Source: a virus (lineage: Duplodnaviria > Heunggongvirae > Uroviricota > Caudoviricetes). Taken from it: DNA of 7,184 bases. Location: positions 1-7,184 of the IMG/VR virus record IMGVR_UViG_2681813320_000018; one strand, given 5' to 3'. This document shows, piece after piece, positions 1 through 7,184 of this stretch. Within the stretch, counting starts at the first letter, position 1; every line of letters begins with the position of its first letter. The position numbers were made by a program, and so were the translations under genes. The notes under the pieces are model-generated. The model was not told where the DNA came from and did no database searches. It saw only the letters and a program-made list of their open reading frames with translations.

Positions 1-20
1 GATTCAGGGGGTGACGTGTC

Positions 21-761
21 ATGAAAAACATTGCGGCAGTTGGGGTTCTTGAACGTATTCGCAGACTTGCACCACAGGGGTCGGTTCCACCGTACCGTAC
101 GGTGGCGGAGTGGCGGGAATGGCAGCTTGCTGAAGGGCGTAAGCGCAGCGAGGAGGTTAATCGTCTGAATCATCAGACGCGGGTTGAAAAAATTATTAAC
201 CGCTCCGGTATCCAGCTGCTTCACCGGAAGTGTACGTTCGGTAACTACCGGGTGCAGAACGATGGTCAGCGCCATGCCCTGAGTCAGGCGAAATCCATTG
301 CGGCAGAGCTGGAAGGCGGCTGTACGAATTTTGTTTTCAGTGGCAGGCCTGGCACAGGAAAAAACCACCTGGCGGCGGCTATTGGCAACCACCTTCTGGC
401 GAAAGGTCGCAGTGTGATTGTGATAACAGTGGCGGATGTGATGCTGGCGTTACATGGCAGCTACGACAACAAAAACTCGGGCGAAAAATTTTTGCAGGGA
501 TTGTGTGGCGTTGACCTGCTGGTACTGGATGAAATTGGCATGCAACGGGATACGCGTAATGAGCAGGTCACGCTGAATCAGATTGTTGACCGCAGAACGG
601 CATCGTTACTCAGTGTGGGGATGCTGACAAATCTTAACCATGCAGCGATGAATACACTTCTCGGCGAGCGGGTGATGGACCGCATGTCCATGAACGGTGG
701 TCGCTGGGTGACGTTTAACTGGGAGAGTTGGCGTCCGAACGTCAGCCAGCACAGGAACTGA
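21..761 (+). CDS. DnaC-like replicative helicase loader (phage replication protein, AAA+ DnaC/IstB family)
   Basis: 246-aa ORF from the track. Walker [16 protein letters not shown] and Walker B LLVLDEIG are in the order and spacing typical of DnaC and lambdoid DnaC-like proteins. SD-like CAGGGGG at 5-11 precedes ATG 21. Co-directional with the downstream phage genes. Confidence 0.85.
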
Positions 762-790
762 GAAGTAATTTTTATCCGGAGGAAGTTTTA

Positions 791-1561
791 ATGGAAACCG
801 TATTGCATGCACTGAAAGCGATGGGTAAAGCCAATTCTGTTGAACTGGCGGCGCGGCTTGATATCAGCCGTGAAGAAGTTCTCAACGAACTGTGGGAACT
901 CAAAGAAAATGGCGTTGTTGATAAAACGGGTCACACCTGGTTTCTGGCTGGTGAAGGTGAATCCGGGGTAACCGAAGAACAGCCAGCACAGTCTGAAGTA
1001 CCGGATGTGCTGACCGGGGAGGTCGAACAAAAAGTTACCGCGGACATGATGATTGAGTTTATCTGTCAGGATGGGGCTAAAACGTGTGAGGAACTGGCGG
1101 ATAAGTTCGGTGTTAGCATTCGCAAGGTTGCTTCCACGTTGGCGGTCGTAACAGCAACGGGGCGCCTGGCACGCGTAAATCAGAACGGTAAATTTCGTTA
1201 CTGCATGCCGGGCGATAATTTACCAGCAGAGCCGAAAGCCGCGCTGGTAACGGAAAGTGATGGTAAGGCCTTTCCTCAGCCAGCAGGTGCTGCGTTACCA
1301 GGCCGGGAAGCCGCAACACAGGAAGAAATTAAAACAGAAACTGTGGCGGACATTGTGCAGTCGTTGCCATCGTTTACCGAAACGCAAGCAGATGAGCTGA
1401 TTTTTCCGTCCCTGCGCAGGGCAAACCTGGCGCTGCGCAGGGCGAAAAGTGATGTTCAGAAGTGGGAGCGAGTCTGCGCCGCGCTGCGGGAGCTGAACAA
1501 GCACCGGGATATTGTTCGACAGATTACTGATTCTTCCCGCCGTGTTGTATCGGAAAAGTGA
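791..1561 (+). CDS. hypothetical prophage protein with two winged-helix-like repeats (nin-region-like)
   Basis: Track ORF 728-1561. Start moved to ATG 791 because GGAGG at 778-782 sits 8 nt upstream and the DnaC-like gene stops at 759-761. Two internally similar modules (..[30 protein letters not shown].. and ..[31 protein letters not shown]..) resemble wHTH DNA-binding domains. No specific family recognised. Confidence 0.6.
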
Positions 1562-1576
1562 TTGCCGGAGGCGCTT

Positions 1577-1999
1577 ATGGCAAAAGTATTTACACAAGAA
1601 GAGCGGGAAAAAATTAAGGGGCAGGTTGTTGAACTCGTGCGCCAGAATGGGCGCGAGACGTTACGACAACTTGAAGCTAAGACAGGTGCGACAAGATATT
1701 TAATGAGCGTTCTCGCCAGAGAGCTGGTTGCCAGTGGCGATGTATATAACTCCGGCTACGGGCTATTTCCCTCTGAACAGGCTCGTAAGGACTGGCAAAA
1801 CGCCCGCAAAAAACTCTCAAGGGCAAAGCTGAAGAAACCATCTGCGGTTGATCCGGACCTTATCTGGTCATTACCAGATGGCGAAATACGCCGCTACGAC
1901 AGGCGTCTGAACATAATCTGTCTCGAGTGCCGGAAGAGCGAAGTTATGCAGCGCGTACTGGCGTTTTATCAGGGGAATTTTGAGGAGGTGGTGCGGTGA
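1577..1999 (+). CDS. hypothetical prophage protein (single winged-helix-like module)
   Basis: Track ORF 1562-1999. Preferred start is ATG 1577, preceded by GGAGG at 1567-1571 (5-nt spacer). Contains a module (ETLRQLEAKTGATRYLMSVLARELVASGDV) similar to the two in the upstream gene. Stop TGA at 1997-1999 overlaps the next start. Confidence 0.6.
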   Translation: MAKVFTQEEREKIKGQVVELVRQNGRETLRQLEAKTGATRYLMSVLARELVASGDVYNSGYGLFPSEQARKDWQNARKKLSRAKLKKPSAVDPDLIWSLPDGEIRRYDRRLNIICLECRKSEVMQRVLAFYQGNFEEVVR

Positions 2000-2250
2000 G
2001 TGAATCAAAATGCCAGGTTAATGGCAACAAGATAGAACCATGTGCAGCACTGGCAAAGTCCCTTGAGCATGATGCTGAATACACGATGCGAAAAGGTCTG
2101 CTGATATACAAAATCTGGAATGAGAGTTTAACTCGCGGTCCTGATTTTGTGATGTTGCGTTCCGGTGAATTTTCTAAATTACCAGTTCGGGTTTCATTTT
2201 GTCCGTTCTGTGGTGAAAGTCTGAAAACGTGGGAGAACAGAAATGAATGA
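1996..2250 (+). CDS. hypothetical small prophage protein, possible zinc-ribbon (C-x2-C near C-terminus)
   Basis: 84-aa ORF. GTG start at 1996 overlaps the upstream stop (GTGA), with GAGGAGG at 1982-1988. Cys residues at positions 6, 16, 69 and 72 (CPFCGE). Translational coupling supports it as real. Confidence 0.5.
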   Translation: MSESKCQVNGNKIEPCAALAKSLEHDAEYTMRKGLLIYKIWNESLTRGPDFVMLRSGEFSKLPVRVSFCPFCGESLKTWENRNE

Positions 2251-2554
2251 AATTAAAGAAATACCAGTAGTACGTGATGAATATGGCTGCTGGACGCATC
2301 CTGAATATGAAAAATTCTGTGACGGTCGGGAATATATTTCAACGGAAGAGTTTAACGCCTGGATGGAGGAAAATAATCTTCAATACGTCCTCTGCTTCAG
2401 AGATGAAGGATGTGCTGACCTTGATGCGTGTGATGCTGATATTTCTGCATGGGAACCGGAACGACCAGAGGGCAATGGATGGTTTATTGGTTCAATACAT
2501 GACACCGAAGATGGCCCGGTTTGTGTATGGCTGAGAAATAAGGCCGAAGCATAA
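2243..2554 (+). CDS. hypothetical acidic small prophage protein
   Basis: 103-aa ORF. ATG 2243 overlaps the previous stop (ATGAATGA at 2243-2250). Acidic, Cys-containing, no recognised motif. Last gene before the composition drops. Confidence 0.55.
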   Translation: MNEIKEIPVVRDEYGCWTHPEYEKFCDGREYISTEEFNAWMEENNLQYVLCFRDEGCADLDACDADISAWEPERPEGNGWFIGSIHDTEDGPVCVWLRNKAEA

Positions 2555-2585
2555 AGGCTATAAACCGACTAACAACTAAATACTG

Positions 2586-2620
2586 AGGATTTAAATCAGA
2601 AACGATTTTTATTAAATCCT
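2586..2620. repeat. 9-bp perfect inverted repeat AGGATTTAA / TTAAATCCT with 17-bp spacer
   Basis: Read directly: aggatttaa at 2586-2594 and ttaaatcct at 2612-2620. Lies in the intergenic gap at the left edge of the AT-rich block, about 65 bp upstream of the Q-like gene start. Confidence 0.5.
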
Positions 2621-2686
2621 TAACCGGAGGGATTCCTGCACCCTCAAATCATCAGGAGGCCGCCAGAAAGGGCGGTGGAGATAATA

Positions 2687-3208
2687 ATGGGAATAACTAA
2701 AGAACGATTGTTGGAAATAGCAAACCTTAGTGATTGGGCATTAAGTGATGAGAGAATTGTTTCTCCTCATGCTTATGAGTCAGTTACAAGTATAGAAATA
2801 ACAACAATGGCTAGAATGCTGCTTGGTTATTTCAAAATAGAAAATAAAAAACAGATGGATAGTAATGTTGATATATGTGAGATTTTAGACGATTGGGGGG
2901 CTTGGGTTGTGGCTGGTAATAGTTCTATTGATTGGCAGGAAATAGCTGATAAATATAAAAATGTTGTTCCTCATGGTAAAAAATCACGTCGTCAGTGCAG
3001 CAATGATGAAGGGCGAATTATTGACATTAGTATCCTTAGGTTAGAAAGATATAAGCAACAAGAATATGAGTTAATTGTTGCTCATTTCGTGATTGGTTTA
3101 TCTCTTCGTGCTATTGCAAAGCAACAAGGATGTTCAGATGGAACAATTCGTAAAAGATTGCAAAAAGCCTTAGGTTTTTTGACTGGATATATAGCAATTA
3201 CCAGTTAA
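2687..3208 (+). CDS. Q-like antitermination protein homolog (QuuD/Phage_antitermQ-like C-terminal region) with ~60-aa N-terminal extension
   Basis: Track ORF 2675-3208. Preferred start is ATG 2687, with GGAG at 2677-2680 and a 6-nt spacer. Motifs DDWGAW, SRRQCSNDEG and HFVIGLSLRAIAKQQGCSDGTIRKRLQKALG match what I recall of E. coli cryptic-prophage Q proteins of the QuuD type (from memory). The C-terminal segment also resembles a sigma-70 region 4 / LuxR-type HTH. AT-rich like the adjacent operon. Confidence 0.55.
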   Translation: MGITKERLLEIANLSDWALSDERIVSPHAYESVTSIEITTMARMLLGYFKIENKKQMDSNVDICEILDDWGAWVVAGNSSIDWQEIADKYKNVVPHGKKSRRQCSNDEGRIIDISILRLERYKQQEYELIVAHFVIGLSLRAIAKQQGCSDGTIRKRLQKALGFLTGYIAITS

Positions 3209-3846
3209 GAGTCAGCGGTTTTTTTACCAGTGTAATGGTATAAGGATACTCCCATGTGTCTTACATGATATGGAAGCGCTGTTGCTGGATGCTTTGTGAT
3301 ACTCTTAAAGCGGAGGGGAGAGCCTTCCGCTTCAATTTCTGCGTCCGAAACGGTCGTAGAGAAAAATTCTTTCCATTCATTGAATTTTACTGCTGATTTG
3401 TCAGACTTTATATAAATTAGAATTCCTCCATGATCGTCACGTGACGTACCCGTGCCGTAACGTTCGGTTAGCTGAATCCAGCCATTATGAATAGATTTGG
3501 GGCCTCTCCATAATTTTGCTTCACCGATCCATTCGAATTTTCCGAATTGATGTTTAACTAATAAATCAACGTGACCGCCATGTTGAGTATCATGTTCAAC
3601 ATCATAAAACCTACCTTTCAGGAAATTTTTGATCGACGCTGTTAGCTCGTCCTCTCCCCACTTAGCATCTTGATAGAAGTGTTTGTCATTTTCTAAATTC
3701 TGAATAGCGTCGTCTAAATCTTCATAGAGTTGCTTTACAAAAATATTTTTGTCTGCAGCTAATTTTCTTTGAACCATTCCCCTAAATTCAGGATCCATTC
3801 TAATTAATGATTGAAGGTCTGCAGTACAGATGTTTACATCACTCAT
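3205..3846 (-). CDS. hypothetical protein, putative PD-(D/E)xK-type nuclease (third gene of minus-strand operon)
   Basis: Track ORF 3205-3909. Preferred start is ATG at 3846-3844, with GGAGAG 5 nt upstream on the - strand, overlapping the upstream gene's stop by 8 nt (ATGAGTGA). Motif YDVEHDTQHGGHVDLLVKHQFGKFEWIGEAK gives E83, D94, E109-x-K111, consistent with a restriction-endonuclease-like core. The 3' part of the gene (about 3205-3500) is nearer 52% GC while the 5' part is about 35%. Confidence 0.55.
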   Translation of the reverse strand: MSDVNICTADLQSLIRMDPEFRGMVQRKLAADKNIFVKQLYEDLDDAIQNLENDKHFYQDAKWGEDELTASIKNFLKGRFYDVEHDTQHGGHVDLLVKHQFGKFEWIGEAKLWRGPKSIHNGWIQLTERYGTGTSRDDHGGILIYIKSDKSAVKFNEWKEFFSTTVSDAEIEAEGSPLRFKSITKHPATALPYHVRHMGVSLYHYTGKKTADS

Positions 3847-4267
3847 GCAGACTCTCCAAAAGACTCGAAGGAGTAAAGTATGGATAAAGATACTGGCTAA
3901 AATTATCAACCAATTCGCCAGTTTCTGGATGGTAAAAACTTCCTGTGTCTAAAGCATAGGAAATAAGATCATCTTCAACTGGTATTGGTTCTTCCGTTAA
4001 ATTATCAATGTATTGAAAATGCATATCCAATAGATGTGCTTTATAGCTAGATAAATAATCAGTTGCTTTTATTAGCAGGATATAGTCATCTTTCGTATCA
4101 GTTAGATAGGTTAAACCATTGATAAGGGTTTTGTATGTAAAGTGATTGATATTTTTAGCATCTTTACTAACCAGAAAAAGAAAAAGATCACGACACACAC
4201 TGCGAACAGGATCATTAAAATCCTGCTCTATTTGCGTGATAATGTCGTGATATATACTCTTTTTCAT
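3839..4267 (-). CDS. hypothetical protein (142 aa), middle gene of minus-strand operon
   Basis: ATG at 4267-4265 overlaps the upstream gene's TGA (ATGA overlap). Its stop overlaps the next start. AT-rich coding with an acidic C-terminal half. No recognised motif. Confidence 0.55.
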   Translation of the reverse strand: MKKSIYHDIITQIEQDFNDPVRSVCRDLFLFLVSKDAKNINHFTYKTLINGLTYLTDTKDDYILLIKATDYLSSYKAHLLDMHFQYIDNLTEEPIPVEDDLISYALDTGSFYHPETGELVDNFSQYLYPYFTPSSLLESLHE

Positions 4268-5355
4268 TTATGGCCTGATGATCTCGCTCTTCTTTTCTCT
4301 TCACAGGACTTAACAGAATCCAATATTTTTTCAACAATAAATATAATCGAATCAATGTTGTTACAGTTCTTCGCAATTGCTTCATGCAACCTAATTCTAG
4401 GATTATCAAGCATTGTCCTTTTTCCTGGTAATATTAACTCTACTGATAAAATATGTGAAGAACTTTGTGGTAAATCCCAAATTTTTCCCAACTTAAACTT
4501 TGTCAATATTGGGCTTGCGGACTCTCCACTATGATGGTAAACATCTTGACGCAAACACTTTTGACTTGGTTTGAGTTTTAAAGAACTTGTATTGCCATCT
4601 GAGGTGATAAAAGATACATGAGAAATTCTGCCATCTACTTTTTCGTAAAGATCTTGTATTGAACCAAATAATTCAAGAGGATTGTTTAAAATAACGCCAG
4701 CTTCTTTTTTTATAAATTTAGCCACAAGGTATTGTTGAGGCTGTGATTCACTTCTTGGAAGGATAGATAAATCAATCGTAAGAATTAATATTTTTTCTGC
4801 AGGCATTAGCATGATGGTATTAAAGCATTGCGTGACTTGGCGTGTTTTGCATTTTATTTCTCCACCATTAGCACGTAATTCCATACCCGCATCGCTAAGA
4901 TGTGTTGGGTCAAGCTCTATCACTTCAGTGTAATACGCTTTGGATAAAAAAACAGCAGTGTCAATTTGTTTATCACGAATGATATCTTGACGTAGTTCAG
5001 CAAAATGCAGCTCAGTATCAGCAACTAACAGCTCCTCTCTGGATAAAGGAGTTGGGTATTTTTCTGAGAAGGGGCTATTGTCCTTTTTCTGATTTGTGAA
5101 AATTGTTTGTAATTTTGCTACGTCTTCATCGGTGATTCTATAAATAGAAAGTAATCGATTCCCGCTAAAAATTAAACCTTTCCAGAAATCGTCGATTCTG
5201 TCTTTTAGGTCGGGATTATGCTGAACTACACTATTTACACGTTCAATAAAAAGGGGTAATCCTTGGGCCGTTACACCCAGTGATGAACCAAGAAGCTTAC
5301 GGGTGTTGCGCCAGCCAAAGCGTGAATTGATGTTTTTTACTGTTTGCTCAAGCAT
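4264..5355 (-). CDS. hypothetical protein (363 aa), first gene of minus-strand operon
   Basis: Track ORF 4264-5361 begins at a GTG. Preferred start is ATG at 5355-5353, preceded on the - strand by AAGGAAG (5-nt spacer). Long uninterrupted AT-rich ORF. No Walker A/P-loop found on manual scan and no family recognised. Confidence 0.65.
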   Translation of the reverse strand: MLEQTVKNINSRFGWRNTRKLLGSSLGVTAQGLPLFIERVNSVVQHNPDLKDRIDDFWKGLIFSGNRLLSIYRITDEDVAKLQTIFTNQKKDNSPFSEKYPTPLSREELLVADTELHFAELRQDIIRDKQIDTAVFLSKAYYTEVIELDPTHLSDAGMELRANGGEIKCKTRQVTQCFNTIMLMPAEKILILTIDLSILPRSESQPQQYLVAKFIKKEAGVILNNPLELFGSIQDLYEKVDGRISHVSFITSDGNTSSLKLKPSQKCLRQDVYHHSGESASPILTKFKLGKIWDLPQSSSHILSVELILPGKRTMLDNPRIRLHEAIAKNCNNIDSIIFIVEKILDSVKSCEEKRRARSSGHK

Positions 5356-5400
5356 TAACACTTCCTTAATTTTCCCTTAACAATTTAGGGTGCTAAACTT

Positions 5401-5440
5401 TTTTGCGCAGTTTACATAAAAAAATAGTGCGTACGCAAAA
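5401..5440. promoter_or_regulatory. operator-like dyad: 10-bp perfect palindrome TGCGTACGCA inside an imperfect 9-bp inverted repeat (TTTTGCGCA ... TACGCAAAA)
   Basis: Read directly: tgcgtacgca at 5428-5437 is self-complementary; arms at 5401-5409 and 5432-5440 match 8 of 9. Located 45-85 bp upstream of the minus-strand operon start, in the AT-rich divergent intergenic region. Function is inferred. Confidence 0.3.
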
Positions 5441-5496
5441 ACTATCTAACATGATGAGCTTTAACCGGGAAATTTGTATATGTTGTGAGCATAAAG

Positions 5497-5525
5497 TTGG
5501 CTGAGAAATCTAAAACGGGTAGAAT
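5497..5525 (+). promoter_or_regulatory. candidate sigma-70 promoter for the hok-family transcript (-35 TTGGCT, 17-bp spacer, -10 TAGAAT)
   Basis: TTGGCT at 5497-5502 and TAGAAT at 5520-5525 with a 17-bp spacer. Predicted start near 5532 gives a leader of about 170 nt before the hok ATG, in line with the long structured leaders of hok-family mRNAs. Confidence 0.3.
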
Positions 5526-5701
5526 GACTGCGGGTGCTTGAGGCTATCTGTCTCAGGCATGAACACCAAAAGGCAGATAGAGAAAAGCCCCAGTTAACAT
5601 TACGCGTCCGGCAAGACGCTTAACATTAATCTGAGGCCATATCTATGCTCTACACACGTAGGTTAGCCTCTTACGTGCCGAAAGGCAAGGAGAAGCAGGC
5701 T

Positions 5702-5857
5702 ATGAAGCAGCAAAAGGCGATGTTAATCGCCCTGATCGTCATCTGTTTAACCGTCATAGTGACGGCACTGGTAACGAGGAAAGACCTCTGCGAGGTACGA
5801 ATCCGAACCGGCCAGACGGAGGTCGCTGTCTTCACAGCTTACGAACCTGAGGAGTAA
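5702..5857 (+). CDS. hokD: Hok/Gef-family type I toxin (HokD/RelF-like, 51 aa)
   Basis: MKQQKAMLIALIVICLTVIVTALVTRKDLCEVRIRTGQTEVAVFTAYEPEE carries the Hok-family signature (hydrophobic TM helix, LVTRKDLCE, TGQTEVAVFTAYE) and matches my recollection of E. coli HokD (unverified). GGAG at 5690-5693 precedes ATG 5702. The track ORF starts at an in-frame upstream ATG 5645, judged not the toxin start. Confidence 0.85.
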   Translation: MKQQKAMLIALIVICLTVIVTALVTRKDLCEVRIRTGQTEVAVFTAYEPEE

Positions 5858-5927
5858 GAGACCTGGCGGGGGAGAAATCCCTCGCCACCTCTGATGTGTC
5901 AGGCATCCTCAACGCACCCGCACTTAA

Positions 5928-5953
5928 CCCGCTTCGGCGGGTTTTGTTTTTTT
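5928..5953 (+). terminator. rho-independent terminator (CCCGC-UUCG-GCGGG stem-loop plus U-tract)
   Basis: Perfect 5-bp GC stem at 5928-5932 and 5937-5941 with a UUCG tetraloop, followed by TTTTGTTTTTTT at 5942-5953. Lies 70 nt downstream of the hok stop. Confidence 0.7.
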
Positions 5954-6024
5954 CTGGCATTCTGGTTTACAATTCGCACGTCAGCCTGAACACCTGACAC
6001 CTGCTGCGCCAGCAGAGAAAACAG

Positions 6025-6297
6025 ATGGCGCACAAAACCAAATTTCACAATTCTGATACCGACCTTGCCATCCGGCATGGGCGGCGTTCACACGCATTTA
6101 AAACCGACTGGTACCAACACCCACCATGTACTGAAGAACAGGCCGAATGGCTAATTCATAACTACCGCAGACGCGGATACGAGATTAAGAAAGCCCTCAG
6201 CCTCGATTATCGTCACTGGATAATCTCCGTCAGGCTTCCTTACTCTGAACGCCCACCGCGTCCGTCCCGCACATTCCAGCAACGCATCTGGAGGTAA
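6025..6297 (+). CDS. hypothetical small prophage protein (rem-like by position between hok and the DUF968-like gene)
   Basis: 90-aa ORF starting at ATG 6025 with a weak purine-rich SD. Basic, Arg-rich. Assigned as rem-like only because E. coli K-12 Qin has the order hokD-rem-ydfU (from memory). Its stop at 6295-6297 abuts the next gene's GTG. Confidence 0.55.
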   Translation: MAHKTKFHNSDTDLAIRHGRRSHAFKTDWYQHPPCTEEQAEWLIHNYRRRGYEIKKALSLDYRHWIISVRLPYSERPPRPSRTFQQRIWR

Positions 6298-6298
6298 C

Positions 6299-7184
6299 GT
6301 GCGGGTATTACTTCGACCTGTTCTGGTACCGGAACTCGGGCTGGTGATCGTTAAGCCGGGCCGTGAATCCATGCCGGTATTCCACAATACCCGGGTACTG
6401 GTGGAGCCGGAACCGAAAAGCATGCGTAATCTGCCGTCCGGGGTCGTTCCTGCCGTTCGCCAGCCGCTGGCGGAGGATAAATCATTACTGCCATTTTTCA
6501 GCGACGAACGAGTGATTCGTGCTGCTGGTGGCGCTGGCGCATTGTCTGACTGGTTACTGCGCCATGTTAAATCCTGCCAGTGGCCACACGGCGATTATCA
6601 CCACAGTGAAACCGTCATTCACCGTTATGGTACCGGCGCAATGGTGTTGTGCTGGCACTGCGACAACCAGCTGCGCGACCAGACCTCCGAATCACTCGGG
6701 CAACTTGCTCACCAAAACCTGTCTGCATGGATGATTGACGTCATACGCCATGCAATGAATGGCTCGCAGGAACGGGAATTATCGCTGGCTGAATTATCCT
6801 GGTGGGCGGTCCGCAATCAGGTGGCGGACGCGCTACCGGAAGCGGTATTACGTCGTTCGCTGGGGTTGCGTGCGGAAAAAATCCGCTCAATGTACCGTGA
6901 AAGCGACATCGTACCGGGAGAGCAGACCGCCACCAGCATACTGAAGCAGCGCACAAAAAATCTTGCGCCGCTGCCTCACGCCCACCAGCAAAACCCGCCA
7001 CAGGAAGAGACGGTGGTCAGCATTGCCGTTGATCCTGAGTCTCCGGAATCTTTCATGAAACGACCTAAACGTCGCCGCTGGGTTAACGAGAAATACACAC
7101 GCTGGGTGAAGACACAGCCGTGTGCGTGTTGTGGTAAGCCAGCCGACGATCCCCATCACCTGATTGGTCATGGTCAGGGCGGAA
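6299..7184 (+). CDS. YdfU/DUF968-like prophage protein, 3'-truncated by window end
   Basis: Frame translated by hand from GTG 6299 to 7184 without a stop (295 codons), so the track omits it. GGAGG at 6290-6294 precedes GTG 6299; alternative starts are ATG 6371 or 6422. C-terminal visible part has C-A-C-C-G-K-x5-P-H-H-L-I-G-H-G, a Cys/His cluster suggesting a zinc-binding or HNH-like module. Several track ORFs here overlap it on other frames and strands. Confidence 0.6.
   Translation, partial: MRVLLRPVLVPELGLVIVKPGRESMPVFHNTRVLVEPEPKSMRNLPSGVVPAVRQPLAEDKSLLPFFSDERVIRAAGGAGALSDWLLRHVKSCQWPHGDYHHSETVIHRYGTGAMVLCWHCDNQLRDQTSESLGQLAHQNLSAWMIDVIRHAMNGSQERELSLAELSWWAVRNQVADALPEAVLRRSLGLRAEKIRSMYRESDIVPGEQTATSILKQRTKNLAPLPHAHQQNPPQEETVVSIAVDPESPESFMKRPKRRRWVNEKYTRWVKTQPCACCGKPADDPHHLIGHGQGG

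Follow-up and report, generated by a model that had tools for sequence, protein, structure and literature searches.

Accessory genes occupy the slot between the antiterminator gene Q and the lysis genes of lambdoid prophages, as exemplified by stx in the Stx phages. In the Qin prophage of Escherichia coli K-12, the gene order relB-relE-hokD-rem-ydfU-ydfT (Q) places the relBE toxin-antitoxin (TA) pair directly before hokD. In the phage 21 layout, a Q gene is followed by a late promoter with a Q-binding element and a pause site, a terminator, and then the late genes (bioRxiv 10.1101/651190). Here we analyze a stretch of 7,184 nucleotides (nt) from a tailed virus (Caudoviricetes), which corresponds to positions 1 to 7,184 of IMG/VR record IMGVR_UViG_2681813320_000018 (the window) and represents a Rac/Qin-type lambdoid prophage of E. 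coli. Its relBE-equivalent slot is occupied by a low-GC island that carries a Q-like gene and, on the minus strand, a three-gene operon (A-B-C, or the trio). Gene C is predicted to encode a BamHI-like nuclease, and we regard the trio, with confidence somewhat better than even, as an uncharacterized nuclease-based anti-phage or anti-mobile-DNA defense module that would be expressed from the lysogen.

The A-B-C operon and its predicted products

The three genes on the minus strand of the island have overlapping ends and are ordered A-B-C. Gene A (4264-5355; 363 aa) begins with an ATG at 5355 that is served by an AAGGA ribosome-binding site, the mechanical open reading frame (ORF) call starting instead from a GTG at 5361; it is followed by gene B (3839-4267; 142 aa) and gene C (3205-3846; 213 aa). 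The overlaps, 4 nt between A and B and 8 nt between B and C, suggest coupled translation and possibly a complex. For gene C, we prefer the longer start at 3846 to the 197-aa form annotated in RefSeq (3205-3798), because this is where the PHROG profile and all of the homologs start and because most other loci show the same 8-nt overlap between B and C. Upstream of A, a consensus scan of the minus strand for the operon promoter gave nothing convincing, and reading of the hexamers by eye was unproductive. None of the three proteins is covered by Pfam (2025) or retrieves a match in NCBIfam or the PDB sequence set; the families recovered were PHROG families of unknown function, such as phrog_11490 for B. 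A classical relBE-like TA module and a known defense system were both considered as identities for the locus and rejected; the three genes, of 363, 142, and 213 aa, are not a pair of small toxin and antitoxin genes and drew no TA or known defense family from Pfam, NCBIfam, or PADLOC.

The structure predicted for C has the α-β-β-β-α-β core of the restriction endonuclease-like fold. D94, E109, and K111, together with E65, are invariant in 39 homologs down to 27% identity, and the catalytic-type residues map to predicted strands 91-98 and 105-112, which are the second and third strands of the core. Among solved structures, those nearest to it are of type II restriction endonucleases and McrC. In sequence-profile searches, the window protein itself had no Pfam or NCBIfam match, 3 of the 39 homologs touch PDDEXK_9 (best E value, 0.0098), and a weak match was obtained to the PADLOC model PDC-S54 (E value, 0.002). 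On the basis of the predicted fold, we take C to be a putative BamHI-like PD-(D/E)xK nuclease. The profile of C also drew matches to Rab GTPases; these fall on a noncatalytic stretch and are regarded as spurious.

Gene A is predicted to encode a four-helix N-terminal part joined to an RdgC-like core. Two independent fold searches both ranked RdgC first, with a match that covers most of the chain and a loose superposition (root mean square deviation, 6.7 Å; TM score, 0.3 to 0.4). At the sequence level, neither the window protein nor 60 members of its family had a Pfam match, PF04381 of RdgC included, and an hhalign comparison of the A family with an assembled RdgC alignment gave a probability of 0.45%. 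With a fold match and no sequence signal, we describe A as RdgC-like in fold only. A strongly conserved stretch of A that includes H274, G277, and their neighbors lies in the single low-confidence loop of the model, and our guess is that it might contact a partner or DNA. Sequence searches of solved structures with the single sequence of A, with its profile, and with the single sequence of C retrieved nothing, and those with B and its profile returned chance-level matches (E values of 0.06 or worse). No relatives of B were detected apart from those in the trio, where it lies between A and C at all of the loci examined.

Distribution and genomic contexts of the trio

Word-indexed searches recovered 33 clusters for A and 45 for C. 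A profile search against 1.84 billion representatives extended the A family to 512 clusters at an E value of ≤1e-3 and 302 at ≤1e-10, nearly all with proteins of about 350 aa; the family comprises at least 512 clusters at 50% identity. The order and sizes of the three genes are kept in all of the loci that we looked at, including those from Vibrionaceae, Shewanella, Acinetobacter, and metagenomes, and in every distant locus the profiles of A, B, and C each match their own gene; the lone locus with A only (L041 in our numbering of loci) is a 1.2-kb fragment.

The contexts are diverse. The lambdoid carriers are prophages of Salmonella, Enterobacter, and other E. coli strains, where the trio lies between Q and the holin gene, and 34 viral contigs in IMG/VR carry it. 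In Yersinia prophages (L005 to L007, 1-5564), the trio adjoins tail genes and a gene for a 2753-aa polyvalent protein with LPD5, LPD1, MuF_C, and LPD38 domains, a slot quite unlike the lambdoid one. Further copies are found beside a P2-type replication gene in one genome, with a resolvase gene in a Shewanella island, on a Photobacterium chromosome, in a metagenomic phage, and in a transposase-flanked metagenomic locus. In one locus (L066, 1-4451 and 7723-8842), the trio stands directly downstream of an HmaC ATPase gene of the Hma system (E value, 1e-122), before which an MNT/HEPN pair is inserted; it is also flanked by a fragment of a DUF1156 methylase gene, and genes for a NERD/zinc-ribbon protein and an integrase lie on the opposite side. 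Judged from this gene content, the locus looks like a compact defense island. Two other loci have neighbors that match PADLOC models, a mad3-like ATPase (L064) and a PbeA-like helicase (L048).

Among 50,697 deposited phage genome records, no trio was found except in two mislabeled Acinetobacter contigs. These records, CAKLQF020000019.1 (L075) and CAKLQH020000040.1, were deposited as "Acinetobacter phage MD-2021a" and have genes for a nitroreductase, FabG, glycerate kinase, and AcrR around the trio, a content that makes both look like bacterial chromosome contigs. A scan of species-representative genomes yielded one trio locus, and for one A-protein sequence of Salmonella the index of the assembly collection lists about 2,000 blocks.

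The island as cargo in a variable slot

The island (2677..5518, no strand assigned) has a GC content of 36.0%, against 52.5% to its left (1-1999) and 54.5% to its right (5519-7184). In sliding windows, the GC content is about 50 to 57% up to about position 2000, about 40 to 44% from 2000 to 2650, 30 to 42% from 2700 to 5500, and 49 to 60% after 5550. Maximum-likelihood segmentation with three breakpoints placed them at about 2000, 2675, and 5525, and a two-breakpoint model was favored over a uniform one by a log-likelihood ratio of 95. The same discontinuity is seen in codon usage, the GC content at third codon positions being 0.22 to 0.33 in the four island genes, 0.50 to 0.60 in the DnaC-like, DUF1627, and DUF977 genes on the left, and 0.55 in the 90-aa gene on the right. 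The compositional island is real and far beyond chance. A preliminary description of this DNA, made from the sequence alone without database searches, had proposed a sharp island at 2555-5460 between flanks of 57 to 58% GC. The drop itself was borne out, with flanks of 52 to 55%, and its borders required revision. The fall on the left is not a single sharp one but proceeds in two steps, at about 2000 and about 2675, the first of which lies inside the conserved backbone and reflects two small phage genes that have 43.1% GC (1996-2554) although they belong to that backbone; the right edge falls at about 5518 to 5525, some 60 bases beyond the earlier border, and the Rfam match to hok/sok begins at 5532.

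Alignment to related prophages gave concordant boundaries: against a relative with other cargo, the match ends at 2676 and restarts at 5519, in agreement with the GC edges, and against a second E. coli backbone the homology edge is at 2617. Positions 1567-7184 are 98.5% identical to the enteropathogenic E. coli (EPEC) strain E2348/69. Of 5426 complete E. coli genomes, 5029 match the window in some part of its flanks, and 14 carry the A-B-C block (query 3205-5361). All 14 copies are chromosomal and single copy, and they match at least 97% of the block with an identity of at least 99.5%. In one relative, the same slot holds DUF4014, DUF551, and a hypothetical gene; in others, it holds DUF7167/Ea22-like genes with an integrase-core gene of the insertion sequence (IS) type, or an IS3 element; in K-12 Qin, relBE sits exactly there. 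The range of contents in the slot and the rarity of the island mark the latter as cargo that was acquired horizontally, in a variable position of a Rac/Qin-type lambdoid prophage. The earlier proposal of inserted cargo at the relBE position of Qin-type prophages is upheld by these comparisons, A-B-C being far from a universal core of related prophages.

Some carriers show further rearrangement. In two of them (NZ_CP027312.1 and NZ_CM165887.1), IS421 lies within the matched region. In strain ETEC1746 (NZ_CP122727.1; L063), gene A is truncated to 621 nt, and the IS1A element that comes after it takes the place of the hok side; the truncation and the IS1A element imply that the operon is undergoing erosion in at least one strain.

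The Q-like gene, the conserved block, and the probable origin of the segment

The fourth gene of the island, on the plus strand (2675-3208), is a Q21-family antiterminator-like gene with a 177-aa ORF, which RefSeq starts at 2687 (173 aa). Its product matches Pfam PF06530 over residues 66 to 175 with 109.9 bits (cutoff, 26) and the phage 21 Q structures 6jnx and 6p18 with an E value of 6e-4, which places it in the Q family. The ORF is composite: the match to phrog_79 covers the core and that to phrog_3323 (E value, 9e-15) covers residues 4 to 67, so that a foreign N-terminal part of about 60 aa precedes a Q core of about 117 aa starting at M61. From roughly the first 60 codons (2675-2860) and this internal methionine, the gene looks like either a fusion or an overextended ORF; the Q genes that adjoin the operon elsewhere encode 113 to 129 aa. 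The two E. coli versions of the gene have their mismatches concentrated in codons 1 to 77. At a broader scale, the two E. coli backbones that bear the island are about 99.4% identical over 2900-5500 and diverge sharply over 2617-2900, within the Q-like gene, and beyond 5500, a pattern that points to a recently exchanged unit. In E2348/69, the near-identical prophage has a second Q gene downstream, after RusA and past the end corresponding to that of the window.

In the other lambdoid prophages with the trio that we examined, the gene order is RusA, Q, the antisense genes C, B, and A, holin, and endolysin. The 3' end of C overlaps that of Q by 4 to 25 nt in these loci, and in the window the stop codons of the two genes share the palindrome TTAA (3205-3208). 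The convergent Q/C junctions of the window and of three other loci (L008, L052, and L055) leave no space for a terminator between the genes. Read-through from Q would be antisense to the entire operon and could silence it upon prophage induction. The Q-like gene is missing from all of the non-lambdoid contexts (L004 to L007, L046, L048, L050, L059, L064, L066, and L075), which argues that it is a passenger rather than a component of the system.

Upstream of A, a block of about 55 bp is conserved in all nine of the other lambdoid loci aligned, though their A proteins are only about 50% identical. Its core reads GCG(G)T(A/C)CGCAAAAA...TG(T/A)TAAGAGTGGT, or in short form GCGGTCCGCAAAAA...TGTTAAGAGTGGT. 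Alignment with these nine loci revealed a degenerate copy in the window (5410..5458, no strand assigned), in which the half proximal to A is kept and the other half, with the TAAGAGTGGT part, has a 7-nt gap and substitutions. In two of the other loci (L008, 5827-5925, and L055, 6834-6920), an intrinsic terminator facing the holin gene lies within about 50 nt after the block. A scan of the window found no terminator-like site between the block and hok, and what follows the block here is hok/sok rather than a terminator and lysis genes. Within the window, then, the phage 21-type arrangement of late promoter, Q-binding site, and terminator ahead of late genes is not seen next to the Q-like gene. 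We interpret the block as probably being the late promoter/Q utilization region, from which its Q would be separated by 2.2 kb of antisense cargo; neither promoter hexamers nor Q-binding repeats were identified in it.

On the basis of this layout, the island is more than a simple insertion and was probably copied from another lambdoid phage, as the segment from Q to the late promoter together with its resident accessory operon. In the simplest history, the trio would normally reside in lambdoid phages, with Q on one side and the late promoter on the other, and would be exchanged there through recombination in the flanking homology of Q and the late-promoter block. In the present lineage, the entire segment would have recombined into the variable slot upstream of hok/sok, and the Q-like gene would be a mosaic remnant or a spare copy carried along with the operon as the homology for exchange.

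A proposed defense module and the alternatives to it

Several features of the genes favor a role of the trio in defense: a restriction-type nuclease without a methyltransferase, two obligate partners, and overlapping genes with an upstream region of their own. The same reading is favored by the antisense placement in prophages, the many kinds of mobile elements that carry the trio, the defense neighbors of some copies, the patchy rarity, and the low GC content. The preliminary description had counted prophage slots of this kind among the hotspots for TA and anti-phage systems; of these two kinds of cargo, the first is not what the slot contains as far as families go, no TA family being matched, and the second is the one toward which we lean, if modestly. 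The division of labor that we sketch is a good deal more tentative. A, with its RdgC fold, would probably bind or encircle DNA as a sensor or loader; B might be a small partner that bridges or restrains A and C; and C would be the DNA-cutting effector. A yet more specific scheme, which we consider doubtful as a whole, has the RdgC-fold clamp sense invading DNA or replication and recombination intermediates and license C through the adaptor, with the antisense placement allowing antiterminated transcription to silence the system on induction and so confer self-immunity through convergent transcription.

A number of points weigh against the proposed defense role. In PADLOC-DB v2.0.0 (2023), A and B have no match and C has none beyond PDC-S54, and ten distant homologs of A were likewise negative, bar a spurious match to AbiEi (E value, 0.0035). 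The association with defense genes comes from three loci (L066, L064, and L048), two of them with partial matches, and is an anecdote, not a statistic. The fold-level likeness of A to RdgC gives little clue to what A might sense, B is without a recognizable family, and the operon contains no nucleoside triphosphatase or helicase of the type typical of many sensor-nuclease systems. In addition, gene A is frameshifted in two IMG/VR copies, which could reflect decay in some strains or errors of assembly.

One alternative is that the trio is an addiction or TA-like module that stabilizes the prophage or island, with C as a toxic nuclease, B as its antitoxin, and A as a regulator or chaperone. This accords with the location in the relBE slot of Qin and next to hok/sok, with the presence of the trio on mobile elements of many kinds, and with the need of a nuclease that lacks a methyltransferase for an inhibitor, as which the small overlapping B could serve. 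We nonetheless think it unlikely: besides the lack of a TA family match, the loci examined retain the complete set of three genes, in contrast to the two genes and shuffled partners that are usual for TA loci, and an order with the large protein first and the nuclease last is not the usual antitoxin-toxin layout. Such a module would also overlap with abortive-infection defense, from which it is not cleanly separable. The fold of A invites a different explanation, in which the trio serves the phage itself in recombination or replication, A restraining RecA and C processing DNA ends. E. coli RdgC has been reported to restrain RecA, 432 phage records are matched by E. coli RdgC in tblastn searches, and most of the copies of the trio found here are in prophages. 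Against this, in lambdoid prophages the operon is antisense to both early and late phage transcription and has its own upstream region, some copies are not in phages at all but on chromosomes or in loci flanked by a transposase or resolvase gene, no true phage genome among the deposited records carries it, and it is rare even in E. coli (14 of 5426 genomes). As A moreover is without sequence similarity to RdgC, we rate a phage-serving module as rather improbable.

Within the defense interpretation, a sub-case deserves separate mention, namely, that C acts as a restriction enzyme that is either modification dependent (type IV-like) or unregulated in some other way, with A and B as its specificity or assembly subunits. 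The nearness of C to type II restriction endonucleases and McrC would fit, as would the lack, at every locus, of a methyltransferase gene within or adjoining the operon. This sub-case strikes us as quite improbable, with no GTPase or ATPase partner comparable to McrB and no known sign of a modified-base reader in the RdgC-like fold of A. Finally, the island could be a decaying, nonfunctional remnant of recombination, silent as xenogeneic low-GC DNA. The mosaic Q-like gene, the degenerate late-promoter-like block, and the frameshifts in Q or A of some copies are in its favor, and H-NS commonly silences AT-rich foreign DNA in E. coli. It is very hard to reconcile with the three intact ORFs of the window, the near-uniformity of the block among its 14 E. 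coli carriers (identity of at least 99.5% across 97% or more of its length), and the preservation of the trio and its invariant catalytic residues among hundreds of clusters whose identity falls as low as about 20%, and we give it scarcely any credence. An uncharacterized defense module is the interpretation that we retain.

Flanking genes of the prophage

The backbone around the island consists, from left to right, of genes for a DnaC-like ATPase (21-761), DUF1627 (728-1561), and DUF977 (1562-1999) and two small phage genes (1996-2250 and 2243-2554; together 43% GC) and, beyond the island, of the type I TA locus hok/sok (5532..5947, plus strand) and a 90-aa gene (6025-6297), which in the annotation of E2348/69 is followed by a DUF968 gene. 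The first of the small genes, with 84 aa, is intact in the window, and its counterpart in E2348/69 carries an internal stop and is listed as a pseudogene. The hok/sok locus is defined by a match to Rfam sok (RF01794) of 117 bits at 5532-5707, the hok coding sequence (5702-5857), and a terminator-like site (5926-5943), and hokD is annotated in E2348/69. A subthreshold Rfam match to the Salmonella prophage small RNA isrK (5866-5947; 27 bits against a gathering score of 50; E value, 0.0085) overlaps the 3' end of hok and its terminator.

Significance and comparison with known systems

We propose the trio as a candidate new three-gene nuclease system. Prophage-borne defense cargo is of a known kind, and the components match no known family. 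No paper in the searchable literature, which excludes the newer defense catalogs and subscription-only papers, mentions these proteins, and a prior description is possible. Should the trio act in defense, it would constitute a new family in which two components, A and B, lie outside all curated families, and it would provide a role for the RdgC fold, which is found in the 432 deposited phage records matched by tblastn and whose function in phages is, to our knowledge, unclear. The A family reaches pathogens, including EPEC E2348/69, Shiga toxin-producing E. coli strains, and Salmonella. If the trio is not a defense system, the island would be an ordinary low-GC accessory island. In either case, the locus illustrates the movement of Q-to-lysis cargo, along with the regulator that flanks it, into a second slot, which bears on how prophage mosaicism is read.

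Among described loci, relBE-hokD (relBEF) of K-12 Qin is the positional counterpart: the backbone synteny is the same, the slot immediately upstream of hokD-rem-ydfU-Q is the same, and both loci are lambdoid accessory cargo. The contents differ, relBE being a two-gene type II TA pair, in contrast to the Q-family gene and three-gene nuclease operon of the window. With stx and other accessory genes of the Q-to-lysis slot, the trio shares its location between Q and holin in Salmonella, Enterobacter, and other E. coli; unlike such cargo, it is antisense to late transcription, has its 3' end overlapping that of Q, and in the window has moved with Q to a different slot. The phage 21-type late cassette has the Q-family gene in common with the island, and the relatives of the latter keep Q, the block, and a terminator before the lysis genes. 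In contrast to that cassette, Q and the block of these relatives are split by the 2.2-kb antisense cargo, and the block of the window is degenerate and followed by hok/sok.

As for the proteins, C is 8 to 14% identical in sequence to BamHI, BglII, BstYI, OkrAI, McrC, HamA of Hachiman, and NucC. C has no methyltransferase, helicase, GTPase, or cyclic-nucleotide sensor as a partner; its partners, A and B, belong to no known family. Type II restriction-modification systems differ from the trio, for which no methyltransferase was found within the island or, at other loci, immediately adjacent to the operon. A is best compared in fold, over most of its chain, with RdgC, the recombination-associated DNA-binding protein of E. 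coli (PDB 2owl), alongside which we place the phage RdgC-like proteins; RdgC is encoded by a stand-alone gene, in contrast to A, which sits in a nuclease operon and has the extra four-helix part at its N terminus.

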